Shown piece after piece: positions 10,806 through 60,832 of a stretch of DNA of 64,000 nucleotides. How positions within the stretch are numbered: position 1 is the stretch's first letter; each line of letters starts with the position of its first letter. The DNA lies in the NCBI GenBank assembly GCA_964360965.1, contig CAYHYM010000001.1, forward strand, positions 8,878 through 72,877, in the 5' to 3' direction. The DNA comes from an uncultured Gammaproteobacteria bacterium. GTDB taxonomy: Bacteria > Patescibacteriota > Microgenomatia > Daviesbacterales > UBA10151. A program made the position numbers and the translations under genes. The notes beneath the pieces were generated by a model. It ran no database searches. It worked only from the letters and a program-made list of their open reading frames with translations, and was not told the DNA's origin.

Positions 10806-11361
10806 CTATGGCTCCTCCTTGGGATATTGTAAAGCATGCTTTAGCATCATTTTTCTGATTCCTTAGTACTATCATCAAGGTTGAAGCGCTGGTAATACAA
10901 GAATCCCCACCGGCAAAACCCACATTCCCATTCAGAGCAGTAAAGTTCACAGTTAAAGGAGGGGGGAAGGTTGAACCATCCGGAGGGCAACTTGCATTAG
11001 GAACAGGTGAACATTGGATTGAAACTACCTCTGCACCTTCAAGAGTTTGTACTTTTTGTTCAGATTCTAGGGTTCCACAGGTTAATGATAGCTTAAGCTT
11101 ATTCCCATCAAACTTAACTGACCAAGGAACACCGCCTTGATTATTACATAGGACTCCGGCCGTGGCATTGGCTTGAGCCAGCCTTAAATAGGTCTGAATT
11201 TGACCAACAGCTTTGTTTAAAACCTGATCCTGGGTAAAATTCTTAAAGTTGGCAAAAACTACAATTCCCACCAGGGCAGTAATGGTAATCACCACCAAAA
11301 GTTCAACAAGGGTGAACCCGCTTCGACCTCGAAGCGAGGCGAGACCACGGACAGTTTGCAT
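10795..11361 (-). CDS. type IV pilin / pseudopilin (GspG-like)
   Basis: RSGFTLVELLVVITITALVGIVVFANF prepilin motif. Confidence 0.7.
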   Translation of the reverse strand: MQTVRGLASLRGRSGFTLVELLVVITITALVGIVVFANFKNFTQDQVLNKAVGQIQTYLRLAQANATAGVLCNNQGGVPWSVKFDGNKLKLSLTCGTLESEQKVQTLEGAEVVSIQCSPVPNASCPPDGSTFPPPLTVNFTALNGNVGFAGGDSCITSASTLMIVLRNQKNDAKACFTISQGGAIDVQ

Positions 11362-11441: not shown

Positions 11442-12119
11442 TTATTCTGCAATAAGATGTTTTATTTGATCTAATTTCCTCTGATAATCCATCTGGTCAA
11501 ATGTAAATTTTTTAAACTGATTCAATGAACGAAAATAGGCCAATAAGAACTTTTTATCCACAATGATATTCAATTTTTGTTTACCGAGGTATTCTGAAAA
11601 AGAGCACCATGGATAATTTTCCAACTCTTCAGGCTTTTTAATGATATAAGCAGTTAGGGGATTAAGATGAATGTAACGAGCTACATGAACTAATTGCTCA
11701 TCAGTCTCAATTCTAACTGCCTTAAATCTTGATTGGAAAAGTGACCCATTTCTATCATTTTTAGTATTAAAATATTTTGCATAGCTATTTTGAAAGTTTC
11801 TTGTAAAAGTGGTTATTCCGCCACTATTTATCTCCTTAATTAAAAAATGAATGTGATTTGGCATTAAACAATAAGCTAAAACTTGTATCAATCTTTTGCC
11901 AGTTTGCTCTAAACTTTTTAAAAACTTCGTCTTTTGGTCTTCAGCTAATCGATTAAAATGAGAGTAACGTAAAGTTAGTTTTTCAAATGTGTAAAAATAG
12001 AGTGTTTGAAGTGCTCTCTGATAATCCCTTTCATTGATAAAGATTGGCAGACGTGCCACACTCCGGTTGAAAATATGATAGATTTCACCTTCAACAATCG
12101 GTACTTTGCGGTAGGGCAT
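11442..12119 (-). CDS. REP-associated tyrosine transposase (RAYT, IS200/IS605-like Y1 HuH transposase)
   Basis: HuH motif LMPNHIHFLIK. Catalytic Tyr region ARYIHLNPL...YPWCSFSEY. 225 aa; a paralog lies at 41180-41848. Confidence 0.8.
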   Translation of the reverse strand: MPYRKVPIVEGEIYHIFNRSVARLPIFINERDYQRALQTLYFYTFEKLTLRYSHFNRLAEDQKTKFLKSLEQTGKRLIQVLAYCLMPNHIHFLIKEINSGGITTFTRNFQNSYAKYFNTKNDRNGSLFQSRFKAVRIETDEQLVHVARYIHLNPLTAYIIKKPEELENYPWCSFSEYLGKQKLNIIVDKKFLLAYFRSLNQFKKFTFDQMDYQRKLDQIKHLIAE

Positions 12120-12680: not shown

Positions 12681-13287
12681 AAATTTGATTTGAATAAGAG
12701 CCTCCAAAAGCTGCACACCAAATATCTGAAGCAGTAGACCTTAATGATGAATTGTATTTCCAGTTTTTAAGTCCGCATCTTTCAGAATCATTGGTATTTT
12801 CCAGCTGTGCTGTCAGGTCATAAGTTTGACCATCAGCAGTAACATTTCCATAAGTATAGGAATAATTTCCACCAACCCAAGGACCATTGGCATTATTGAT
12901 AGGGTCAATTGGTAGCCTGGGAGTAATACCACCATTGACTAAAGCAGGAATCCAACCCTCTCCTGTAGTACTGTAGACATAACAATTGGATCCGTAAGCA
13001 CAACTACCAGCAGTGGGATACTTACCAGCACCAGCACGATAAGCCTCCAAATAGGTATTGATTTTATTAAGATCAGCTTTTCTTTTAGCATCTCTGGCAT
13101 TTTTTTGAACACCTGAGTAGGCAGCTATACCTATCACAGAAAGAATACCAAGAATGGTAATAACAACCAGCAATTCAACCAGGGTGAAACCCTTCGACTC
13201 ACTATGCTCGCTCAGGGCAAGGCCACGTTTATCCTGAGCAAACCTGTACTGAGCGGAGTCGAAGTAGTCGAAGGAGGCAGATTTCAT
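12658..13287 (-). CDS. type IV pilin (PilA-like) with N-terminal extension derived from a palindromic repeat element
   Basis: SKGFTLVELLVVITILGILSVIGIAAYSGVQKNARDAKRKADL. The 32-aa leader MKSASFDYFDSAQYRFAQ... is encoded by the repeat at 13190-13274. Confidence 0.7.
   Translation of the reverse strand: MKSASFDYFDSAQYRFAQDKRGLALSEHSESKGFTLVELLVVITILGILSVIGIAAYSGVQKNARDAKRKADLNKINTYLEAYRAGAGKYPTAGSCAYGSNCYVYSTTGEGWIPALVNGGITPRLPIDPINNANGPWVGGNYSYTYGNVTADGQTYDLTAQLENTNDSERCGLKNWKYNSSLRSTASDIWCAAFGGSYSNQIYEASPDR
13190..13274. repeat. GTCGAAG/CTCAGTAC-family palindromic element (inverted CCTTCGACT ... AGTCGAAGG arms) embedded in-frame in the pilin 5' end
   Basis: Reverse complement matches 54391-54435 and 62450-62495 (GGTTCGAyTACTTCG...CTCAGTACAGGTAC). 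Confidence 0.6.
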
Positions 13288-22566: not shown

Positions 22567-22620
22567 TGGATTTTGCTAACGCGGCACTGAGCGTAGTCGA
22601 AAGGCAATAGAGGTTTATGT

Positions 22621-24503: not shown

Positions 24504-24572
24504 CCCCTAAAAGCCTTGCGTTACCACCTTCAAACCAAGTATAATTAGAGTGGCTACAAAGCCATTTTTTTA

Positions 24573-27104
24573 ATGAACATTGGTAAAATTCAACCGGCTC
24601 CCATAATTGAAGAGATGCAGCGGTCCTATTTGGACTATGCTATGTCCGTCATAGTCTCTCGGGCCTTACCTGATGTCAGAGACGGCCTAAAACCGGTGCA
24701 GCGACGCATTATCTATGCTATGCATGAGCAAGGATTGCACCATACCTCAAGATATCAAAAGTCTGCAGCAGTTGTTGGTGAAGTTTTAAAGAATTTTCAT
24801 CCCCACGGAGATACCCCTGTCTATGAAGCCATGGTGAGAATGGCCCAAAATTTTTCCATGAGATATATGCTGGTTGACGGCCAAGGAAATTTTGGCTCCA
24901 TTGATGGAGATTCACCGGCAGCCATGCGATATACTGAGGTAAAATTATCCTCAATATCAGAAGAATTACTGCGTGATATCAACAAAAACACTGTTGATTT
25001 TACGGATAATTATTCAGGAACAACTCAAGAGCCCGTCCTGTTGCCATCCGTTATACCCAATCTGCTGCTTAATGGAGCCTCAGGTATAGCTGTTGGCATG
25101 GCCACCCAAATTCCACCCCATAATTTGGGGGAAGTATGTGATGCCTTGGTCTATATGATAGAACACCCAACCAGAACTGTCATTGCGACCCCGAATGAAA
25201 CAAGGGGGGATAACAATATATTTTCCTCTGATGCCACTGTTGAAAATTTAGTCCAGTTCATCAAAGGTCCGGATTTCCCCACAGGCGCTGCTATTTTTGA
25301 TCAAACAGAAATTATGGCAGCTTATGCAACTGGTAAAGGCAGGATTGTCATGCGCGCCAGAGCAGAAGTTGAGGAGACAGAGGCGGGCTCGCCTCGCTCC
25401 GCGGGCGGAGCGGGAAAAATGCAAATCATAGTCACGGAAATCCCATATCAGGTTAATAAATCCACTCTTATCTCAAGGATGGCCGAGCTGGTCAAAGATA
25501 AAAAAATAGAGGGGATTGCGGATTTGCGCGATGAGTCTGACAGAACACAGATGGTGCGAATTGTGATCGATCTGAAAAGAGACGGGAAACCCCAATCAGT
25601 TCTAAATAATTTATACAAACATACTACTATGCAGTCTGTTTTTAATGTCAATATAGTAGGCCTTCTTGATGGAGTGCCGCATCTTTTAAACCTAAAACAA
25701 ATTCTGCAGGAGTTTGTCAACCACCGCCAGAGGATTGTCAAAAGACGTTCCGAATTTGAACTGGCTGAGGCTAAAGCCAGGGAACACATCCTGCTGGGAC
25801 TGACAATTGCCGTTGATCAAATAGACGATGTCATTGAAACAATTAAAAAGAGCAAAGACGTTGAGATGGCCAAAGTTAATTTAATGGCCAAATTTAAACT
25901 AACAGAGATTCAATCGGTGGCTATTTTGGATATGCAGCTGCGGCGTTTGGCAGCATTGGAAAGGCAAAAAATTGAGGATGAGCTAAAAATGGTTAAAGAA
26001 ACCATCGCCTATCTTGAGAATCTGCTGATCTCGCCTGAAAAAATCTTAAGAGTTATAAAAGATGAGCTGGTAAAAATTAAGCAAAAATATGCAGACCCGC
26101 GACGCACCAAAGTTTACAAACAAAAAGTGGGGGAATTTAATGAGGAAGATCTGGTAGCCAATGAGGTGACAATTGTCACCATTACAGAAGGAGGTTATAT
26201 CAAACGTCAGTCTCCCGCCTCTTTCAGGACTCAGGCCAGGGGAGGAAAAGGGGTTTTGGGCATTTCCACCAAAGAAGAAGATGCGGTTTCCCATATTTTT
26301 TATACCCAGACTCACGATAATATTTTATTTTTTACCAGTATTGGAAAAGTTTATCAGGTTAAAGTTTGGGATATCCCGGAAACACAACGGGCTGCCAGGG
26401 GCCAAGCTGTGGTTAATTTAATAAATATTGAGCAAAGGGAAAAAGTCACTGCTGTTTTAACCAGAAGAGAGAAAGGAGAGGCGGCCAAATACTTCTTTAT
26501 GTGTACCTCCCGTGGTACTGTCAAAAAAACCGCTCTTTCAGAGTATGCCCATATTAGAAAGAACGGGTTGTTGGCCATAAAACTGGGAGCGGGTGATAAC
26601 CTGGGCTGGGTTTACCCAACAACAGGATTAGATGATGTGATAATTGTGTCCCAAAAAGGCAAATCTATCAGATTTTCTGAAAAGGGGGTTAAGCCAACAC
26701 ACAGGGATACTTCAGGCGTCAGGGGTATCAGACTTACAAAAGATGATCAGGTGGTATCTTTAAATATTATTGGGGATGGACAGGGAGAGCTGCTGGTTAT
26801 TATGGAAAACGGTTTGGGTAAAAAGACCAATATTTCATCCTGGAAAAGACAAGGCAGAGGAGGACAGGGAGTGAAGGCTGCCCAGGTTACTGCCAAAACA
26901 GGGAATATTGTCACAGCATCTTTAGTTGATAAAACCATGGATACGCTGATTTTAACATCAACCAAAGGCCAACTGATAAAAATGGACCTTAAACAGGTGC
27001 CAACGCTGCAAAGACAAACTCAGGGAGTAATTTTGATGAGAGCAAAAGACGGGGAAAAAGTGGCAGCAGCCACAGTGGTATCATCCAAGGAGAAGGTAGA
27101 ATGA
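24573..27104 (+). CDS. gyrA: DNA gyrase subunit A
   Basis: [16 protein letters not shown], active-site region AAMRYTE, C-terminal beta-pinwheel repeats. 843 aa. Confidence 0.95.
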
Positions 27105-39788: not shown

Positions 39789-40598
39789 CTATCCTATCCA
39801 GGAAGTTGTTAAAAATGCTACCATAAAAACAGCCATCCCAATAATCAGGTATTCCCATATTACTCTCCTATTCAACCTGTTTTTTAACCATCCTGTCAAA
39901 AGTCCCAGTAAAACATACATGGAAGAAGAAACAGCCAGGGAAAACATCGGGGCTTTGATCGGCCAAAAGGAAAAAGCTAAAGCCAGCTCCCCCAAAACCA
40001 AACTTAAAATAAATGTCTGTCCCAAAATTGCAGTCCCCATACTATCCTCCATCTCCTGAGCCCAAATAAATTGCATGATCAGGGGAAAGCTGATCACAAA
40101 AACAAATCCTCCATTTGCCCAAAATGGCAAATTAAAAGCAGCCAGTACATTTATGATAAAAAAAGCAGTTATCAGGGTAAATAAAAAATTGGCTGTTGAA
40201 GCAGCGCGGTACAAAGGTATGGTCCTTAATGATGCCACATTAAAGACATTTTGAGAAAGCAGAAGTAAATAAAAAGTCAGACCAAAAAAAAGTCCTACAG
40301 GCAGCCTAGTAAGCCAGCGCACAGGCAGTAAGAAATAAAAGGAGGCCACAGCCAAAGCATAAAGCGTGGGCAAGATCAAAAGTACCACTGCTTTGATGGG
40401 ACTTAGTCCCTCCCAAAGAGCCCACAAAGACAAAAAATAAGCGCTGAGCGCAAGTCCTGCTATAAAGCGAAATCTTAAGTCAAAATCAACCAGTTGGGTG
40501 GAAAAAAGGCCCAAAGTTAAAAGTATGGAAGATATGATAATTTTCTGACGTTTGGTTAAATTTAGATTCATTTTGCTGCCATCTTCAACACATGACAA
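39789..40598 (-). CDS. hypothetical polytopic membrane protein
   Basis: Seven or more hydrophobic helices. No recognisable family. Confidence 0.35.
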   Translation of the reverse strand: MSCVEDGSKMNLNLTKRQKIIISSILLTLGLFSTQLVDFDLRFRFIAGLALSAYFLSLWALWEGLSPIKAVVLLILPTLYALAVASFYFLLPVRWLTRLPVGLFFGLTFYLLLLSQNVFNVASLRTIPLYRAASTANFLFTLITAFFIINVLAAFNLPFWANGGFVFVISFPLIMQFIWAQEMEDSMGTAILGQTFILSLVLGELALAFSFWPIKAPMFSLAVSSSMYVLLGLLTGWLKNRLNRRVIWEYLIIGMAVFMVAFLTTSWIG

Positions 40599-41101
40599 AT
40601 GGCAATGGCCAAGGCATCTGTGGCATCATCCAAATGTCCGCCGCGCCATGTGACTTTTAGCTTCCTTCTCTTTCTTCCGTTACTCCCCAGAAACTTCCTT
40701 ACCCCATCATGGACTTGGGTCTTATCTGCCCTGCCTGATCCTGCCACCATCAGCTTCACCTGAAGTCCGGTATAATCTTGAATGGGAACCCTATGCTCTG
40801 CTGCAGCCAGCATGATCACTCCCCTAGCTTGACCTACCATGATGGCAGTTCTGGTATTGGCCCCAAAAAATAACATCTCGGAAACCATCTGATCCGGCTT
40901 GTATTGTTTTATTATTTTGGTCAGCTCTGAATGAATCATATGCAGTCTATCCTGCATTAATCTTTCTTTGGGGGTGTATATATTGCCATAAGTTATAAGT
41001 TCAATTCCATATTCAAATTCCCTACCCAAAATATCATCAGGAACCTTAATTACCCCATATCCGGTTGTAGCTGTTCCAGGATCAATGCCTAGTATTATCA
41101 T
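40568..41101 (-). CDS. ruvC: crossover junction endodeoxyribonuclease RuvC
   Basis: MIILGIDPGTATTGYGVI. RNase H-like fold with conserved D/E/D/D positions. Confidence 0.8.
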   Translation of the reverse strand: MIILGIDPGTATTGYGVIKVPDDILGREFEYGIELITYGNIYTPKERLMQDRLHMIHSELTKIIKQYKPDQMVSEMLFFGANTRTAIMVGQARGVIMLAAAEHRVPIQDYTGLQVKLMVAGSGRADKTQVHDGVRKFLGSNGRKRRKLKVTWRGGHLDDATDALAIAICHVLKMAAK

Positions 41102-41143
41102 AACAGTTTTCCAATTCTAACACAGCCATTCATTAGTAGTTTA

Positions 41144-41159
41144 GACACCTGGGGGGTGG
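41144..41159. repeat. REP-like element GACACCTGGGGGGTGG 3' of RAYT-2 (inverted partner at 41889-41904)
   Basis: The 14-mer ACACCTGGGGGGTG occurs here and as a reverse complement at 41889-41904. The pair brackets only the RAYT gene. Confidence 0.65.
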
Positions 41160-41179
41160 ATTAGGCAGGCATGTAGGGA

Positions 41180-41848
41180 TTATTCCAAAATAAGATGTTC
41201 AATCAGTTTTAATTTTCTTTGATAGTCAGCTTGATCAAATACAAAATGTTTATATTTTTCCCTGCTTCCAAACATATCCAACACTAAATTTGGTTCTAAA
41301 AAACCATCATTACCAGTAAGATAATTTGAAAAGGATGACCACGGATACTTTTCTAATTCACCAACAGTTCTAACTATAAAATTTGTATAAGGATTTAGGT
41401 GTATATATCTTGAAACATGAATAAACTGTTCATCAGTCTCTATCCTCTTGGCTTTAAATTGATCTAAAAATAAGGAGCCGTCCCGTTCATTCCTGGTATT
41501 ATGATAACGAGTATAACTATTTTGGAAATTACCTATAAATTTTGAAATACCATCCTCCATTTTCTGCTTTAACAAGAAATGAAAATGATTGGGCATTAAA
41601 CAAAAACAAATAATATCAACTAATTTTTCTGCCTGGTTCGTAATTTTGGTAATCTCTTTTTGTTTATCTTGTTCCAACTCCAAAAATTTAGATAATCTAA
41701 TAGGTGGGCTTGAAACTCTATAAAATTCAATTGCCAAAATTGCCCTTTGGTATTCTTTTTTTGTGGTAAAGGTGGGTTGCTTATTTATACCTCTGTTGTA
41801 AACATGGTAGATCTCATCCGTTACAAGTGGAATTTTTCTACCTGGCAT
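41180..41848 (-). CDS. REP-associated tyrosine transposase (RAYT) paralog
   Basis: HuH motif LMPNHFHFLLK. Tyr region SRYIHLNPYTNFIV...YPWSSFSNY. About 50% identical to the 11442 copy. Confidence 0.8.
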   Translation of the reverse strand: MPGRKIPLVTDEIYHVYNRGINKQPTFTTKKEYQRAILAIEFYRVSSPPIRLSKFLELEQDKQKEITKITNQAEKLVDIICFCLMPNHFHFLLKQKMEDGISKFIGNFQNSYTRYHNTRNERDGSLFLDQFKAKRIETDEQFIHVSRYIHLNPYTNFIVRTVGELEKYPWSSFSNYLTGNDGFLEPNLVLDMFGSREKYKHFVFDQADYQRKLKLIEHLILE

Positions 41849-41870
41849 AAAGTCATAATAGATTAATTAT

Positions 41871-41930
41871 CCCTGGGTGTCAACCTGAGACACCCCCCAG
41901 GTGTTTATAGGTGTTTATACAGGTGTTTAT
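41871..41930. repeat. REP-like hairpin (GGGTGTC aacctga GACACCC) plus three tandem AGGTGTTTAT decamers 5' of RAYT-2
   Basis: Seen directly: CCCTGGGTGTCAACCTGAGACACCCCCCAGGTGTTTATAGGTGTTTATACAGGTGTTTAT. Confidence 0.7.
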
Positions 41931-42518
41931 ATCCACTGAATGGACACTCTCCGGATTCCCTATAACCATTTTGATATCGGCAGGTAGTTCAATCTCATGA
42001 TGGTAAAATCCATCAACCACGCTTTTACCAATTTTCATACTAATAGGAGTTTTATAGTCTCTAATAATGGGAACCCCCACGTTGTCTCCTTCTCTAAAAA
42101 AGCTTCTCCACTCTGGTTTACCGACGTCAGCAGGATAAAAATATTTGAACCTTGCCTTAGCTGCTTCAACATCTACCTGACAATCTGAATCAAAAGTCAT
42201 ACCATTAACACTTACTCTAAGTTTTAATTCAGATAAACACTGGGTTAACTGCATAAACCATGGTTCAGACACTACAGCTTTTAAATTTATATCAGGCCAA
42301 TCCCAACCGTCTTTATTGTGATCTTCTCCAAATCTTACTGATATCAATGCCTGTCTTGAAGGTAACTCCACCTGTCTCACTTCTCCGTTAAATTCCCCGT
42401 CAAAAATATACTTTTTAAGTTGAAAAGCATGAACAACAGAATCACCTGACTGGTAAACTAATCTTCCATTAGTAAAAGGTTCAAATTGTTGATCAAATTT
42501 TCTAGTTTCAATATCCAT
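41880..42518 (-). CDS. hypothetical protein
   Basis: 212-aa ORF. No recognisable domain. Confidence 0.35.
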   Translation of the reverse strand: MDIETRKFDQQFEPFTNGRLVYQSGDSVVHAFQLKKYIFDGEFNGEVRQVELPSRQALISVRFGEDHNKDGWDWPDINLKAVVSEPWFMQLTQCLSELKLRVSVNGMTFDSDCQVDVEAAKARFKYFYPADVGKPEWRSFFREGDNVGVPIIRDYKTPISMKIGKSVVDGFYHHEIELPADIKMVIGNPESVHSVDINTCINTYKHLGGVSG

Positions 42519-42526
42519 AATTTGCC

Positions 42527-43387
42527 TTAAGTAGCCTCTCTTAAAATTTCCTCAGCTATATCAAAATTTGCGTAAACTTTTTGTACATCATCCAACTCCT
42601 CTATTTTTCGGGCAAAATCCAGTACTTTTTTGGCAGTTTCCTTATCTTTTATTTCCATCAAGGTATTAGGTTTATAAACAATTTCAGCCTGCTCTACCCC
42701 ATACCCTACTTGAGTAATTTTTGTACTCATAGTATTTAACTGGGAGCTTTCTACATATACTAAATATCCTCGCTTTTCTTGAGCGTCAGCGAAATCCCTT
42801 CGGGTCTGAGCTCTTCGAGTCCGAGCCTCAGAGTCGAGGACCTCAGGGTCGAAGACCTGAGCGAAGTCGAAGGATTCCACATCCTCCGCTCCCAAATCTA
42901 TTAACTCCAACATTTCCTGTTCTCTGTCATCCTCCTTTTCGGGGGCCCGCTGTCCCCTAACTTTTATCTCCCCAATTCTATCAAACATATAAGCCACACT
43001 TCCCTGCCCAGCCAAAGAACCACCTGCTCTTTCAAATAAATTCTTCACTTCCTGTAAGGTCCTCAGTTTATTATCTGTCATCCCCTCCACTAAAAAGGCC
43101 ACTTTCCCCGGCCCAAAACCCTCATACGTGACTTCTTCAATACTTTGACCGGGTAATTTACCCAAACCCCTGTCAATGGCCCGTTGCACGTTCTCCTTGG
43201 GCATATTAACAGCTTTTGCCTCATCCATGACTACCCTCAAACGAGGATTAGACTCCGAATCACCGGATCCCCCCATTTTAGCAGCAATAGTGATGGCATT
43301 AGCTACTTTAGTAAAGGTCTGTCCCCTCTTTATATCCGCAGCCCCTTTTTGCCTTTTTATCGTCGACCATTTGGAATGTCCGCTCAT
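42527..43387 (-). CDS. yebC: YebC/PmpR-family DNA-binding regulator with in-frame repeat-derived insertion
   Basis: MSGHSKWSTIKRQKGAADIKRGQ YebC N-terminus. About 100 nt of GTCGAAG/CTCAG repeat encode DVESFDFAQVFDPEVLDSEARTRRAQTRRDFADAQEK. Confidence 0.8.
   Translation of the reverse strand: MSGHSKWSTIKRQKGAADIKRGQTFTKVANAITIAAKMGGSGDSESNPRLRVVMDEAKAVNMPKENVQRAIDRGLGKLPGQSIEEVTYEGFGPGKVAFLVEGMTDNKLRTLQEVKNLFERAGGSLAGQGSVAYMFDRIGEIKVRGQRAPEKEDDREQEMLELIDLGAEDVESFDFAQVFDPEVLDSEARTRRAQTRRDFADAQEKRGYLVYVESSQLNTMSTKITQVGYGVEQAEIVYKPNTLMEIKDKETAKKVLDFARKIEELDDVQKVYANFDIAEEILREAT
42776..42876. repeat. GTCGAAG/CTCAG-family repeat tract inside the yebC coding sequence
   Basis: TTCGACTTCGCTCA 14-mer shared with 39711-39731. 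GTCGAAGACCTG 12-mer shared with 53975-53990. Confidence 0.55.
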
Positions 43388-43619
43388 GCAAGATATTTTA
43401 ACACAGCCTGAGAATATATGTTTTTAAAGTAAGGGTATAGTTTAATGGATAGATCTACCCCACTTGCTACAACTAAACCTTCTCTTGGTGTTTCTGATGC
43501 CATATTTTTATGAGCAGAATAATAAGACGAGTATACAACTACAAACCCATCTTTGCAAATACCAACAAAAATACGAAACATTGACAAGTTTACTTCCCAC
43601 ACCTTATACTTTTTCTTTG

Positions 43620-44318
43620 ATGGATTCACAACTTGCCATTTCAGCTGCTTTGGAAGGCCGTTTTTCCGAGGCTTTAAAATTAAACCAGCATATCTTAAAA
43701 GATGATCCTAAAAATGTAGATGCCCTAAATCGGTTGGCCAGAGCCTATTTTGAACTGGGAAAACTTATCCTTGCCAAAAAATACTACAATCATGTATTAG
43801 AAATTGACTCCTATAACCCTATTGCCCAAAAAAATTTAAAGATTATTAAAGCCTTCAAAGGCAAAAAAGTAAATGGCATACCAGTTATGCAGCGTATTCA
43901 ACCTGCCCTTTTCCTGCAAGAACCAGGTAAAACAAAGGTGGTAGAAGTTATGAAAGTGGCTGAACCCAATAAATTATCCCAACTTTTCCCCGGACAGAGC
44001 GTCAAAATTGTACTTAAAAAAAGAACCATCACTGTGGTTGACCAAAATGATGTTTATTTGGGGGTTTTGCCTGATGATTTAGCCTATCATTTGATCAGAC
44101 TTTGCAGGGGGGGCAACAAATTTCAAGTTTATGTTAAATCTGTCAGAGTTAATGGATTATCACTGATTTTAAAAGAGGTGTTCCGCAGCAAAAGATTTAA
44201 AAACCAACCGTCTTTTTTGCCTGCCAAGGTTTATCATCATCAAGATATCATCAGCCTTCCTGCAAAAGGGGAAAGTATTGATTTAACCTCAGATGATGAA
44301 GAAGAGGGAACTAGTTAA
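43620..44318 (+). CDS. TPR-repeat protein
   Basis: TPR motifs ALKLNQHILKDDPKNVDALNRLARAYFELGKLILAKKYYNHVLEID. Internal ATG start chosen. Confidence 0.5.
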   Translation: MDSQLAISAALEGRFSEALKLNQHILKDDPKNVDALNRLARAYFELGKLILAKKYYNHVLEIDSYNPIAQKNLKIIKAFKGKKVNGIPVMQRIQPALFLQEPGKTKVVEVMKVAEPNKLSQLFPGQSVKIVLKKRTITVVDQNDVYLGVLPDDLAYHLIRLCRGGNKFQVYVKSVRVNGLSLILKEVFRSKRFKNQPSFLPAKVYHHQDIISLPAKGESIDLTSDDEEEGTS

Positions 44319-45225
44319 TTTTTTGGGCAAAGTCTTCTCCTATAAAAATATTAACCTCGGCCCTTGATTCATATTTTTCATCTTTCATTTCAGAGGATGA
44401 GAAAACCTGCATCAGCCTTTTTCGGGTTTGAGAGGGAGGTGCTGATAAAGTGGAGTGTTTTTGTTTAAATGAGGCATTTGAAGAAATTATGACATTTCCT
44501 CCCATATTGGAAATGATCCTGGACACTTTTTGGGCAATGCCCGGGAGATCCGTGGCATTATAAACCCCAATTGTTAAACCCTCAGACAAAATGGCATCTT
44601 CGGAAAAATTCCCTGTCTCAACTATTTTATCCTCTCTTATTCCTATCAACCCTAAGGCAAATCGCCAAAACTCAAACAAGGTGATATTTGTTTTTGAGGA
44701 AAGCAGAAGTGATATCAAATCCAGAGGAGATGAACGCAGCTGCAAGATTAAATCTTTAGCCCTGGTATTTTTAAAAGAACCCCCGGGTTCCCAATATCCA
44801 TCAAGGGGAATCTCCAGATGTGAAGAAAAAGAGTTTACCAAAAATGAGTCTCCTGCTTTAGGATTCTCATTTTCACCCAAATCAAAGATTGACCTTGCCT
44901 GCCATTCTCCAAATCCTCCCGGAACATTAATATAAACCTCATCCCCAACTTCTAAAAGGACCAAAGTTTTCTCTTTGGGATTATAGGATAAAACTGATAA
45001 ACCGGCAGATTTAACCACCAGATTAATATTAAATGCTCCGTCCCAAAGATAATTTTTGGAAATGGTGGTTTCTTTATTTAGCGGAGCAGATATGAAATGG
45101 ACAAAACGCACTCCATTACCCACCATAATTACCAAAATAAGTATGACCAGCGCCCACAGGGCAATTTTGACCTTTTGTTTTGTTTTTTTATGTGACTCAA
45201 AAATTTTCCAGCCCATTTTTTTCAT
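44311..45225 (-). CDS. LytR-CpsA-Psr (LCP)-family-like protein
   Basis: N-terminal TM, then an LCP-like core (AFNINLVVKSAGLSVLSYNP...LLEVGDEVYINVPGGFGE). Confidence 0.4.
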   Translation of the reverse strand: MKKMGWKIFESHKKTKQKVKIALWALVILILVIMVGNGVRFVHFISAPLNKETTISKNYLWDGAFNINLVVKSAGLSVLSYNPKEKTLVLLEVGDEVYINVPGGFGEWQARSIFDLGENENPKAGDSFLVNSFSSHLEIPLDGYWEPGGSFKNTRAKDLILQLRSSPLDLISLLLSSKTNITLFEFWRFALGLIGIREDKIVETGNFSEDAILSEGLTIGVYNATDLPGIAQKVSRIISNMGGNVIISSNASFKQKHSTLSAPPSQTRKRLMQVFSSSEMKDEKYESRAEVNIFIGEDFAQKIN

Positions 45226-45298
45226 TGTATAAACAAACCTCTTGACCATGCAAGTTTTTATAGTGTAAACTAACCTTTAAAGGGGGTGATAATAATTT

Positions 45299-45571
45299 AT
45301 GGATGATCAAAATACAGTACCGTCTACTGCGGCGCCAGCGCCAACCTGCACCAGCTGTGGCATGGCCACATCAGGTTATAAATGCGCTGTTTGCGGTGAA
45401 GAATCAGCTGCCCATGATCAAGCTCATGCTTGCGGTGGAGAAAATTGCCAGCCAAAATGTGAGGGCTGTGGACAAGCTGACAGCAAATGTACTTGTCAGC
45501 AACCTCAAACTCCATCATCAGGCCCAACTCCTCCACCTGTGGACACTGGAGCAGCGCCACCTGCAATGTAA
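45299..45571 (+). CDS. small Cys-rich (12 Cys/90 aa) Pro-rich protein, possible metal-binding
   Basis: AGGGGG RBS 11 nt upstream. CTSCG...CAVCGEE...HACGGENCQPKCEGCGQADSKCTCQQ. Confidence 0.4.
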   Translation: MDDQNTVPSTAAPAPTCTSCGMATSGYKCAVCGEESAAHDQAHACGGENCQPKCEGCGQADSKCTCQQPQTPSSGPTPPPVDTGAAPPAM

Positions 45572-45591
45572 AGTTTAAACCTCAATTAAAC

Positions 45592-45636
45592 CACCTTCCA
45601 GGATGGTGTCTGCCGACAGATGATTCCTGGAAGGTG
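45592..45636. terminator. perfect 12-bp-stem hairpin between convergent genes (candidate bidirectional terminator)
   Basis: CACCTTCCAGGA ... TCCTGGAAGGTG, with an inner TCTG-CCGA-CAGA stem. No strong U-tract. Confidence 0.4.
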
Positions 45637-45644
45637 ACATGACA

Positions 45645-47354
45645 TTATTCCCAGGCCAGAGTTTTTCTGGATAGTCTGGCCAGTTCAATTTTGGCCCTGC
45701 CTTTAAAATATCCTCCCTCTTTTAAATGCTGACGCAGTTTTTCCGCCAAAAAATCCCCAGCCAAAATTTCCGGCACAATCACAAAATCAGCTCCCTTTTT
45801 ATACAAAATTTTGGCATCAAGAGGAGTTTCTGCCCGGACAACAACAGGTACCCTGATATGTCTTGAGCGGACCTCTTCCAAAAGAGTAAGATTATCCTCC
45901 ACACCCGGGGCTGTCGATATAATCATCCTGGCCTCTTTTAAAAATAAGGCATCTAAAACTTCAGGATCACTCATGTCCCCATAAATAACTTTCACTCCCA
46001 TCTTTTGTAAATCCTCTATCTGGGTGGGGTTAAAATCCAAAACAATATGCCCTATCCTTTCCTTTTTTAAAAATTTGATAATCTCTCCCCCCACCCGGTG
46101 TCCTCCAATTACCACCACATGACCGCGTAAATTTTCACCAATCCTTACTCTTTCCAAAAAATGATGGTAGTTTTTCCTCTCAAAAAAAGTAAAAAGAGAG
46201 GACAAATGTTTATAAATTACACTTGAGTGTGAGATTAAAATGGATGAGATAATCATCGAGGCCACCCCTGTGAGAGCTATTACTGTCAACGCAGCAGTTG
46301 AAGCAACCCCCATCTTCACCCCCACCAAAATTACAATCAAAGAAAACTCAGACACCTGAGAAAGGTTAATGGAAGTTTGGAATAGAGTATGTTTGCGAAA
46401 TCCAAAAATACCCAAAATCAGCATAAAAAGAACAGGCTTTATCAAAACAGCATAACTTACAAACAACAAAACCGTTGGTAAAACTTCTCTAATTTGAGAA
46501 AAATTAACCTGGGTGCCAAGATAGACAAAAAAGAGGGTGATAAAAAAATCTCTTAAGGGTTTAACTTTGCCTTGAATTTGAAAATGATAAGGCGAGGCAG
46601 CCAAAGCCACTCCTGCCAAAAATGCCCCTATCATCACGGAAAAACCCAAAAAAATAGAAAATGACACAAAAATAAAACACCAGGAAAGAGCTGTTAAAAA
46701 TAGCAGTTCTCCTGATTTGGCCACAGCGGAAAAAACAGCCGTCAGCAGATAACGATTAAGTAAAAATGCCGATCCAAAAAGTAGCAAAACCTTGGCCACA
46801 AAGGTAATTACAGGAATAGTCTGCTGCAATCCCAATCCCAAAAAAGAGGGAGAAACAGTTAAGGCCAAAAGCACCAGCACTGCCAGCAAATCTTCCAAAA
46901 TAAGTATCCCCAAAGCCAGTTTTCCATATAAAGAGGTTAAATCTTTTTTATCAAGCAGCAGTTTGACTACCACGATGGTGGATGAAAAAGACAATCCTAA
47001 CCCCAAATACCAGGATTCAGCATCAGAAAAGCCAAAGTTTTTTGCCAGAGACGATCCTAAAATTGTGGTTATGATAATCTGGAAAAGAGCCGATACAATA
47101 ATGGGCTTGCCTAAATTTTTTACCTCTCTTAAATCAAGCTCCATGCCCACCAGAAAAAGCACAAAAGCTATTCCAATCTCCGGTAAAAAAGATAAAGCTT
47201 GTGAGCCTTGAAAATCAAATAAGGTAGAAGAAGCAAGAATCAATCCTCCAAAAAGATAGGCTACCAAAAGCGGCAGGCTAAATTTATGGGTTACAAAACC
47301 CAAAACTGATGATAAACCTAATATGATAGCCAGTTGTATGAAAATGTTATCCAT
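45645..47354 (-). CDS. monovalent cation:proton antiporter-2 (Kef-type) with C-terminal RCK/TrkA-N domain
   Basis: About 12 TM helices. C-terminal Rossmann GHVVVIGGHRVGGEIIKFLKKERIGHIVLDFNP. Confidence 0.75.
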   Translation of the reverse strand: MDNIFIQLAIILGLSSVLGFVTHKFSLPLLVAYLFGGLILASSTLFDFQGSQALSFLPEIGIAFVLFLVGMELDLREVKNLGKPIIVSALFQIIITTILGSSLAKNFGFSDAESWYLGLGLSFSSTIVVVKLLLDKKDLTSLYGKLALGILILEDLLAVLVLLALTVSPSFLGLGLQQTIPVITFVAKVLLLFGSAFLLNRYLLTAVFSAVAKSGELLFLTALSWCFIFVSFSIFLGFSVMIGAFLAGVALAASPYHFQIQGKVKPLRDFFITLFFVYLGTQVNFSQIREVLPTVLLFVSYAVLIKPVLFMLILGIFGFRKHTLFQTSINLSQVSEFSLIVILVGVKMGVASTAALTVIALTGVASMIISSILISHSSVIYKHLSSLFTFFERKNYHHFLERVRIGENLRGHVVVIGGHRVGGEIIKFLKKERIGHIVLDFNPTQIEDLQKMGVKVIYGDMSDPEVLDALFLKEARMIISTAPGVEDNLTLLEEVRSRHIRVPVVVRAETPLDAKILYKKGADFVIVPEILAGDFLAEKLRQHLKEGGYFKGRAKIELARLSRKTLAWE

Positions 47355-53832: not shown

Positions 53833-54128
53833 ACACCCTCCTGTCATCCTGAACCCGCCACAGGCGGGTGAAGGATCTAATCTTTGGATTTTAGCATAAA
53901 CTTCCTTCCTATGTCATCCCGACGAATGTCGGGATCCATAAATAATGTGTTTAGTTGGATTCTCCTCGAGTCTGAGCGACCTCGGAGTCGAAGACCTGCA
54001 TTTGCAGGAATGACAGAAGAAAATCCTTAATTCCCTCTCTATCTCTTTTTAACCATTCCACATTGGAATGAACAAGTTTTCTCTTTCTTACCACGATCGG
54101 AGGATATTTGGTATAATTATTTTTTAGG

Positions 54129-54174
54129 CCGAGGTGTTTACACCGAGCTTGCCGAGGTGTTTACACCGAGCTTG
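54129..54174 (+). repeat. two tandem 23-bp copies of GCCGAGGTGTTTACACCGAGCTT immediately 5' of tRNA-Leu, duplicating the tRNA 5' nine bases
   Basis: Units at 54129-54151 and 54152-54174, with the tRNA beginning GCCGAGGTG at 54175. Each unit holds a GGTGT-TT-ACACC inverted repeat. Confidence 0.75.
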
Positions 54175-54257
54175 CCGAGGTGCTGGAATGGTAGACAGGC
54201 CAGTCTCAAAAACTGGTGATGGCAACATCATGAGGGTTCGACTCCCTCCCTCGGTAC
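54175..54257 (+). tRNA. tRNA-Leu (anticodon CAA), class II with long variable arm, no encoded CCA
   Basis: Hand-folded. Acceptor GCCGAGG/CCTCGGT, D arm CTGG-AATGGTAGA-CAG, anticodon stem CCAGT/ACTGG with loop CTCAAAA, 15-nt variable arm, T arm GAGGG-TTCGACT-CCCTC. Close to E. coli tRNA-Leu in architecture. Confidence 0.85.
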
Positions 54258-58977: not shown

Positions 58978-59349
58978 ATGGCTAAGAAAGTCATAAGCTA
59001 TGACCTTTTATTTGAAGTCAAAGATACTCTTGGTAGAAGGATACACACCACAAAAGATTACTGGCAGAAGATTAAAACCTTAAAGCATCGAGAATTAAAA
59101 TATGGTATTAATGAAGTTAAGACTACACTGACAAAACCAGATGAGATAAGAAGAAGTGTGACTGATTCTACTATTTTACTCTATGCACAAAGACAGCAAA
59201 ATTATGATATACTTATTGTGGCAGTTAAGGTTTTAAATGGTGAGGGTTTCTTAGTGACAGTTTATCAGACTAAGGATTATAAAAAGAAAGGAGAACTTAT
59301 ATGGCCAAAGCAAAAACAGAGGCTCGCCCTGAGCGAAGCCGAAGGGTAA
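58978..59349 (+). CDS. DUF4258-like putative toxin
   Basis: About 120 aa: HTTKDYWQKIKTLKHRELKY...ILLYAQRQQNYDILIVAVKV. Paired with a DUF2283-like gene. Confidence 0.45.
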   Translation: MAKKVISYDLLFEVKDTLGRRIHTTKDYWQKIKTLKHRELKYGINEVKTTLTKPDEIRRSVTDSTILLYAQRQQNYDILIVAVKVLNGEGFLVTVYQTKDYKKKGELIWPKQKQRLALSEAEG

Positions 59350-60724: not shown

Positions 60725-60832
60725 CTTCCACCCTTCGATACTTCGACAAGACTTCGACGGTGAGTCTTTCGACCCTGAGCTCAAGACCGAAGGGCTCAGT
60801 CGAACCGCTCAGTACTCAGGGTAAACCTGAAG
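60725..60832. repeat. 108-bp composite palindromic element (GTCGAAG/CTCAGTAC family) 10 nt after the fabD stop
   Basis: Internal inverted pairs TTCGACCCTGAGC/GCTCAGTCGAA and TCTTTCGACC/GACCGAAGGG. The ends are identical to the 58900 copy. Confidence 0.7.

Follow-up and report, generated by a model that had tools for sequence, protein, structure and literature searches.

An intact yebC gene with an enlarged loop

The locus examined here lies in a stretch of 64,000 nucleotides (contig CAYHYM010000001.1, positions 8,878 to 72,877, of the metagenome-assembled genome (MAG) GCA_964360965.1), hereafter the window, to which all coordinates refer unless another contig is named. It is occupied by a yebC/TACO1-family gene of a Daviesbacteria-type bacterium of the candidate phyla radiation (CPR), whose product carries in one loop a segment encoded by repeat DNA. 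The original prediction described this segment as an acidic insertion of 35-40 residues into an otherwise canonical YebC regulator. The gene and the parts of its loop are as follows:

42527..43387, minus strand: intact yebC/TACO1-family gene, 286 amino acids (open reading frame (ORF), Pfam, NCBIfam, structural model and Foldseek)
42773..42874, minus strand: whole repeat-derived loop, residues S172-K205, SFDFAQ-VFDPEVLDSEARTRRAQTRR-DFADAQEK (comparison with Aquifex 1lfp, model and GC content)
42797..42856, minus strand: 60-nt organism-specific module, codons V178-R197 (VFDPEVLDSEARTRRAQTRR; gap in L001, L003, L004 and L005)
42857..42874, minus strand: older 18-nt "A unit" (CTGAGCGAAGTCGAAGGA on the plus strand) encoding SFDFAQ, which the module adjoins (present in L001-L005)
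42773..42796, minus strand: older common part of the loop, DFADAQEK (identical or nearly so in P0001-P0005, P0031, P0082 and P0045)
42881..42886, minus strand: codons of the conserved E168-D169, in the GAEDV motif directly before the loop (alignment with TACO1)

The gene is indeed an intact and otherwise canonical yebC. Its 286-residue ORF scores above the cut-offs of PF20772 (96.3 bits, cut-off 36), PF01709 (153.4 bits, cut-off 27) and the NCBIfam YebC equivalog PRK00110 (260.8 bits, cut-off 243), the last match being broken into two stretches by the insert. Every family-invariant residue is retained, the ratio of nonsynonymous to synonymous substitution rates (dN/dS) is ~ 0.07-0.12 against the four nearest relatives, and no second yebC was detected in the window by tblastn. 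An AlphaFold2 (AF2) model of the protein, with a mean predicted local distance difference test score (pLDDT) of 80.5 and a predicted template modelling score (pTM) of 0.70, retrieves the three-domain structures 1lfp, 4f3q, 1kon, 5ekz and 9olf_C in Foldseek with E values from 1e-16 to 1e-24 and a probability of 1.00. The query resembles YebC/TACO1 proteins in sequence, domain order and predicted fold but differs from them in its domain III hairpin loop, which counts 37 residues compared to 10 in most Daviesbacteria and 4 in Aquifex YebC. Its closest homologs, 64-77% identical to it and mostly of 250 residues, belong to Candidatus Daviesbacteria (Microgenomates, CPR).

The designation of YebC as a regulator is outdated, since its members are by now recognised translation factors, which relieve stalling at polyproline, and are not primarily transcriptional (PMC12234827, PMC11990639, PMC13602936, PMC13284719). 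Both stall relief and ribosome binding are known for the YebC2 proteins of S. pyogenes and B. subtilis, for E. coli YebC/YeeN and for human TACO1 (PMC12234827, PMC11990639, PMC12996406, PMC13284719), and by homology the query protein may be expected to share these activities. A second variable loop is found in the same protein after EIKVK, at residues ~ 144-158 (42925-42975, VRGQRAPEKEDDREQ), where it is longer than in most relatives; it holds a GC-rich patch centred on GGGCCC, and its APEGEG version is common to P0013, P0014 and P0016.

Extent and anatomy of the insert

Residues 173-207 of the query stand where Aquifex YebC (1lfp) has four residues, and the region 42771-42890 has a GC content of 57% compared to 40.5% for the window. 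The acquisition is shorter than the 35-40 residues first proposed. Indeed, GAEDVE is canonical YebC sequence and lies outside the insert, and ~ 14 further residues (SFDFAQ...DFADAQEK) are older, being common to at least eight close relatives (P0001-P0005, P0031, P0082 and, in modified form, P0045), leaving 20 residues that are organism-specific. A codon-threaded alignment of the DNA, made with the four closest yebC genes (L001, L003, L004 and L005, 74-80% identical to the query at the nucleotide level), shows these 20 codons as one clean gap of 60 nt, bounded by TCCTTCGACTTCGCTCAG and GATTTCGCTGACGCTCAAGAA and with the same flanks on both sides. The reading frame is preserved and the translated segment had been quoted correctly. 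Its description as acidic did not hold, given that acidic and basic residues number 8 and 6 in the 34-residue loop and that the new 20-mer contains 4 D/E and 5 R, for a net charge of +1, with an acidic first half and a basic second half. The tryptic peptides predicted from the region are ...GAEDVESFDFAQVFDPEVLDSEAR and DFADAQEK.

An alignment of homologs had been proposed as a check, and the same insert in unrelated bacteria would have spoken against the original reading; this was not observed. None of the 120 best homologs, from a search of 5.8 billion clusters, carries the 20-residue piece, and a metagenome scan recovered it in a single contig (L042), which belongs to the same organism. This contig of 4761 nt, from Hainich groundwater (H51, ERZ1292623), is a separate assembly, is 99.96% identical to positions 41788-46548 of the window and contains the same insert with the same flanks. 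Short GC-rich repeats can mislead assemblers, and a repeat could have been mis-joined into yebC during assembly or binning; the reading frame and both flanks are, however, colinear with those of the relatives, and since L042 carries the same insert an artefact of a single assembly is very unlikely, so that we give this explanation almost no weight.

Read along the coding strand, the module runs GTCTTCGACCCTGAG GTCCTCGACTCTGAG and then GCTCGGACTCGAAGA GCTCAGACCCGAAGG. The first two of these 15-nt units are direct and the last two inverted, so that one inverted doublet is nested within another; the unit has the form CyTCGrGTCyGAG / CTCAGrGTCGArG. Each unit corresponds to five codons, the forward units encoding the acidic VFDPE and VLDSE and the inverted units the basic ARTRR and AQTRR. 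The reiteration of 15-nt units that had been reported was borne out by the number of motif sites (4 compared to 0.21 expected, a count reached in none of 100 shuffles), but not their uniform orientation, as the repeat region comprises two direct and two inverted units together with a related one of 18 nt. Tandem Repeats Finder delimits two period-15 arrays, at 42798-42826 and 42826-42858. Given the motif count, these arrays and the contrast in GC content, the repeat is real and not a product of chance. The module is open in four of the six frames. Rfam at gathering thresholds returned one tRNA only for the whole window, hence the module belongs to no known RNA family.

Position of the insert in the predicted structure

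In the AF2 model the insert is placed between strands 169-174 and 206-213, which are predicted with high confidence (pLDDT 94-95), and is itself modelled with a pLDDT of 50-73, with a weakly predicted helix at residues 192-203. As modelled, the insertion site is the solvent-exposed tip of a β-hairpin in YebC domain III. Residues E168-D169 sit three residues before the loop and align with E213-D214 of mouse TACO1 (chain 5ekz), which correspond to E216-D217 of the human protein by the three-residue offset seen for 9olf_C. In the human mitoribosome complex, TACO1 E216, D217 and E204 form an acidic patch that contacts the C-terminal domain of bL12m (PMC12996406). The 20-residue segment is zwitterionic and is probably a flexible or helical stretch that projects beside this conserved Glu-Asp patch.

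The repeat family within the window

The repeat family has dyad symmetry. Its 17-mer CTGAGCGAAGTCGAAGG is found at 7 sites of the window with up to 3 mismatches while 0.07 are expected, and related doublets occur at 53962-53998 and 60765-60793. This agrees with the proposal that the repeat family is dispersed. The copies and related modules outside yebC are the following:

53962..53998, plus strand: intergenic inverted doublet CTCCTCGAGTCTGAG-CGA-CCTCGGAGTCGAAGAC, of a sub-type also present in L014, L024 and L032
60765..60793, plus strand: intergenic doublet TCTTTCGACCCTG-AGCTCAAGACCGAAGG, within a larger repeat patch at ~ 60728-60821, with no ORF of at least 60 residues across it
13190..13277, minus strand: A-unit-type palindrome MKSASFDYFDSAQYRFAQDKRGLALSEHSESKGFTLVELL in the leader of a type IV pilin-like protein
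59329..59345, plus strand: A unit (1 mismatch) that lies N-terminally in a small ORF, MAKAKTEARPERSRRV...
22587..22603, plus strand: A unit with 2 mismatches, between a TAA stop (...KLATLDI*) and the next ATG
25389..25414, plus strand: GC-rich palindromic module of a different kind (SPRSAGGAG), in frame in GyrA, giving extra residues with respect to GyrA structures

The module in GyrA (ORF 24549-27101, plus strand) reads TCGCCTCGCTCCGCGGGCGGAGCGGG and gives the protein 7-9 residues more than solved GyrA structures have. Its 26 nt are identical (26/26) to the insert in the YebC loop of another Daviesbacterium, L043. Because a palindromic module sits in frame in GyrA, the same process would act on other essential genes of this organism. 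Two type IV pilin-like proteins carry repeat modules in their leaders (13190-13277 and 11321-11343), just before the GFTLVELL processing motif, and the leader of one of them reads MKSASFDYFDSAQYRFAQDKRGLALSEHSESK-. Elsewhere, at 54128-54182, a perfect tandem repeat of 23 nt x 2.4, GCCGAGGTGTTTACACCGAGCTT, contains the palindrome GGTGTTTACACC; it overlaps a tRNA gene (54174-54256) at the 5' end and also duplicates that end.

Copies in other genomes and proteins

One genome per GTDB species, 596 Gb in all, was scanned with the pattern CTCAGRGTCGARGACCTSAG. This yielded 35 loci, of which ~ 9 would be chance matches as estimated from the degeneracy of the pattern and the amount of DNA. The low-GC loci share one element architecture. 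A three-unit form, ...ATCCCTTCGGGTCTGAG-C-CTCAGGGTCGAAGAC-CTGAGCGAAGTCGAAGGATC, is found in L007, L010, L016 and L033, and a five-unit form, in which a second 30-nt doublet occupies the centre of the first, is that of the window module and of L028, L030, L034 and L038. Identity between the former and these copies is 62/62 nt (L038), 60/61 (L028), 65/68 (L034) and 64/69 (L030). Eight high-GC loci (L011, L013, L015, L017, L019, L020, L036 and L041) have no family flanks and were treated as chance matches; all but L020 and L041 have long ORFs in which LRVEDL(S/R) is encoded.

The hosts of the family are Daviesbacteria, Curtissbacteria, Levyibacteria, Terrybacteria and other Patescibacteria. The L028 copy lies in frame in an ORF of 869 residues, giving VFDPEVLDSEARTRRTQTRR (...SAEVFDPEVLDSEARTRRTQTRR...), and further in-frame copies are found in a Mur ligase, between its M and C domains (L030), in DnaX (L008), in a CHAP-domain protein (L024) and in an N-terminal extension of ribosomal protein L1 (L032). 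All four open frames are used among the in-frame copies.

These copies also bear on whether the 60 nt could have grown in place, by local slippage or by hairpin-templated duplication of the resident SFDFAQ unit. The new units do resemble the adjacent 18-nt unit, and their layout is one of tandem and inverted 15-nt repeats. However, identities of 62/62 to L038 and 60/61 to L028, in different genes and genomes, are not expected from independent growth, and three-unit and five-unit architectures with different flanks recur in at least ten CPR loci. We regard growth in place as improbable.

The identical copy L038 occupies positions 2080-2141 of contig CAYNPJ010000003.1, between Ada-like and Ogt genes. 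This contig carries Ada/Ogt and an isochorismatase, and among named relatives its SDR protein is nearest to one from Zixibacteria; L038 is genuinely a non-CPR bacterium. The match implies either that the 60-nt module has moved between phyla or that the contig is chimeric. Ten further loci come from MAGs labelled "Gammaproteobacteria" (L008, L014, L018, L021, L024, L027, L028, L031, L032 and L039). These labels are doubtful, judging from ribosomal protein L1, which was checked in L032 only and is closest to Daviesbacteria/Patescibacteria proteins (59-68% identity), and these MAGs were counted with the CPR and not as cross-phylum evidence.

Among viral contigs of IMG/VR, the exact 18-mer CCTTCGACTTCGCTCAGG of the SFDFAQ unit is found in 101 stretches, with a median locus GC of 0.61 over the 106 occurrences that have enough flank. 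An inverted CTGAGCGAAGTCGAAG copy is close to several of the occurrences, and GCGAACGG comes after many of them. The unit is therefore far more widespread than CPR bacteria. The 20-nt doublet pattern is absent from the IMG/VR viral contigs, and a phage as vector of the module, for which no sign was seen there, was set aside.

Probable gain of the module and recurrent enlargement of the loop

The stretch between the ...AEDV and YLVY anchors was compared in 120 sequences, namely the query and 119 of its 120 best homologs. It counts 10 residues in 82 of the 120 YebCs and is enlarged to 13-37 residues in 33, in 28 sequence forms, the query having the 37. The enlarged loops are built from recurring repeat peptides, for example EPHSAE...ASRGK, one form being EPHSAEVIDHEVQTELASRGK, and three of them were checked at the DNA level. 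With other repeat modules in the same loop of 32 of the 119 scored homologs, the insertion in the query is not a singular event.

In a neighbour-joining (NJ) tree of 245 well-aligned columns the query is sister to the short-form P0004, with weak support. Copies in other genomes match the module at 98-100% identity, while its host gene is 20-26% divergent from those of its nearest relatives; a copy that matches L038 at 62/62 nt within so divergent a gene would be young. Moreover, the filled and empty junctions show no flanking direct repeats of the kind that would favour precise deletion. Given the position in the tree, the identity of the copies and the junctions, these sequence comparisons suggest that the 60-nt module is a recent gain in the query rather than a loss in its relatives.

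The insert could also be an adaptive extension of the loop, kept for its effect on the contact of domain III with the ribosome, such as with the C-terminal domain of bL12, and would then tune the factor of a CPR bacterium whose ribosome is unusual. The start of the insert three residues after E168-D169, aligned with the bL12m-contacting E216-D217 of TACO1, fits such a role, as does the repeated variation of this loop in the clade. Yet the inserts of the relatives are mutually unrelated, except that all are genomic repeat modules, and the same 60 nt occur in intergenic DNA and in unrelated proteins. The insert is, furthermore, known from one lineage only and the model has low confidence there. 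An adaptive extension thus appears unlikely, though less so than growth in place.

Origin of the module

We consider it likely that the extra segment of this YebC is selfish palindromic repeat DNA, of the kind described in Rickettsia, which is tolerated in a permissive loop and is not an evolved domain. A 60-nt copy of the dispersed module would have entered between ...GCGAAATC and CTGAGCGAAGTCGAAGG, the latter being an older repeat unit already present at the tip of the domain III hairpin. The gene would survive the event because the length of the module is a multiple of three, because the module is free of stops in four of six frames and because the hairpin tip is solvent-exposed. As to the route, the nested architecture and the position beside a resident unit suggest insertion at resident palindromes, directed by a hairpin or by the centre of a palindrome, or gene conversion from another copy. 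The effect on YebC function may be neutral or mild.

Two genes of the window encode RAYT-like proteins, that is, proteins resembling the tyrosine transposases associated with repetitive extragenic palindromic (REP) sequences:

41180-41848, minus strand: Y1_Tnp / RAYT-like gene, two genes from yebC (Pfam above cut-off)
11445-12119, minus strand: Y1_Tnp / RAYT-like gene (Pfam above cut-off)

These paralogs are 47.6% identical and reach 50.8 against the NCBIfam model REP_Tyr_transpos, under its equivalog cut-off of 80. Both have ACACC(n)GGTGT palindromes on their flanks, among them a 43-nt inverted repeat at 41142-41184 / 41865-41907, and the window contains 7 such palindromes compared to 0.5 in shuffles. 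Together, the genes and the ACACC(n)GGTGT palindromes resemble a REP/RAYT-type arrangement for a different repeat family. The neighbouring RAYT-like transposase was considered as mobiliser of the YebC module and remains only a lead, no link having been found.

Several observations weigh against an origin as a tolerated selfish insertion. The filled and empty junctions show no target-site duplication beyond an ambiguity of 1-2 nt (G or AG). No mobilising enzyme could be linked to the module when the two RAYT-like genes of the window were tested by their flanks, both being flanked by the ACACC(n)GGTGT palindrome and not by the YebC module. Folded as RNA and as DNA, the module gives a long imperfect hairpin of ~ -12 kcal/mol, with a z score against shuffled sequences of -0.8 to -1.4 for this hairpin and of -0.5 to -1.5 for the RNA and DNA foldings together; since this energy is not better than that of shuffled sequence, a selected stable structure was dropped. 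The dyad symmetry is itself imperfect, the central trinucleotide of each unit being non-complementary between the arms. The polarity rests on one unbootstrapped NJ tree of a single protein together with the identity argument, and the comparison of filled and empty sites is that of one pair. Finally, in other YebC/TACO1 proteins the surface next to the insertion site is of functional importance, for which reason neutrality is an assumption.

The neighbourhood of the gene is variable as well. The yebC and ruvC genes are neighbours in the relatives L003 and L005; in the window, ruvC (40568-41101) is parted from yebC by the RAYT-like gene and by an ORF of 212 residues (41880-42518), the latter without Pfam or NCBIfam match. 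Other cassettes at the yebC-ruvC junction consist of 23S_rRNA_IVP and DHFR genes in L006 and of a Trans_reg_C gene in L044.

A broader reading is that of a so far undescribed, cross-phylum family of nested palindromic modules made from 15-nt units, which would preferentially enter the centres or edges of resident palindromes and continually remodel surface loops of essential CPR proteins (YebC, GyrA, Mur ligase, DnaX, L1 and pilin leaders). The modules would always be in frame because they are built from 15-nt units. We put this forward tentatively, as a possibility that we favour less than the selfish origin of the single insert. If it is true, the family could supply lineage-specific tuning of YebC, as the loop that receives the modules lies next to what is, in TACO1, the bL12-contacting patch.

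With a selfish origin of the insert, the addition of peptides to essential proteins by selfish palindromes, for which Rickettsia is the main known case, would also take place in ultra-small CPR bacteria. Such an origin would also mark the domain III hairpin tip of YebC as highly permissive despite the functionally important acidic surface that it adjoins. The clean pair of filled and empty sites and the recurrent recipient loop can be used for the study of target choice, and the identical 60 nt in a non-CPR genome raise the question of movement of tiny modules between phyla. For annotation, the module family would account for unusual GC-rich patches and for the differing lengths of conserved CPR proteins. 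The family is of more interest than the single event in YebC.

Comparison with known repeat elements

A search of a literature collection for work on palindromic repeats of CPR bacteria, on RAYTs and REPINs (paired inverted REP sequences) in Patescibacteria and on repeat peptides found no description of these modules. The closest likeness is to the Rickettsia palindromic elements (RPEs), the original reports of which are those of Ogata et al. 2000 and of Claverie and Ogata 2003. As here, where copies lie in frame in unrelated conserved proteins (YebC, GyrA, Mur ligase, DnaX, L1 and a CHAP-domain protein) and the YebC site is a hairpin tip, the insertions are compatible with the host protein. 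RPEs are dispersed palindromic repeats that often lie in frame within housekeeping genes unrelated to one another, where the fold can accommodate them, and they add a peptide segment while leaving the protein intact (PMC10969869). The present modules are set apart from them by length and host, RPEs being ~ 100-150 bp long and forming Rickettsia-specific families, while the modules count 30-60 nt and have a Daviesbacteria-type CPR host. They also differ in being made of 15-nt units, in their nesting and in their hosts, which are CPR bacteria and, for at least one copy, a non-CPR MAG.

With the REP/REPIN-RAYT system and the bacterial interspersed mosaic elements (BIMEs), the modules share the form of short imperfect palindromes, inverted doublets and mosaics of units, and Y1/RAYT-like genes are present in the window. 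REPs are, however, extragenic whereas module copies are found within genes as well, the 5' GTAG of REPs is not seen at the feet of aligned module copies, and a cognate RAYT is flanked by the same repeats, unlike the two genes of the window with their ACACC(n)GGTGT flanks.

MITEs, or miniature inverted-repeat transposable elements, are small and non-autonomous, have terminal inverted symmetry and sometimes give rise to in-frame fusions (PMC10969869). The modules are likewise small and have terminal symmetry, ATCC...GGAT being present in many copies, but they are far shorter than typical MITEs, show no target-site duplication at the filled site and have no identified parent insertion sequence element. 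Palindromic amphipathic repeat coding elements (PARCELs) are also coding repeats with DNA dyad symmetry and a punctate, apparently horizontal distribution. They consist, in contrast, of tandem amphipathic domains of 25 residues in ORFs of unknown function that are often membrane-targeted, whereas the units described here encode 5 residues within conserved housekeeping proteins. Overall, the modules resemble RPE, REP/REPIN and BIME elements in kind and differ from them by their length of 30-60 nt, their 15-nt units, their nesting and their presence in CPR bacteria and at least one other phylum.

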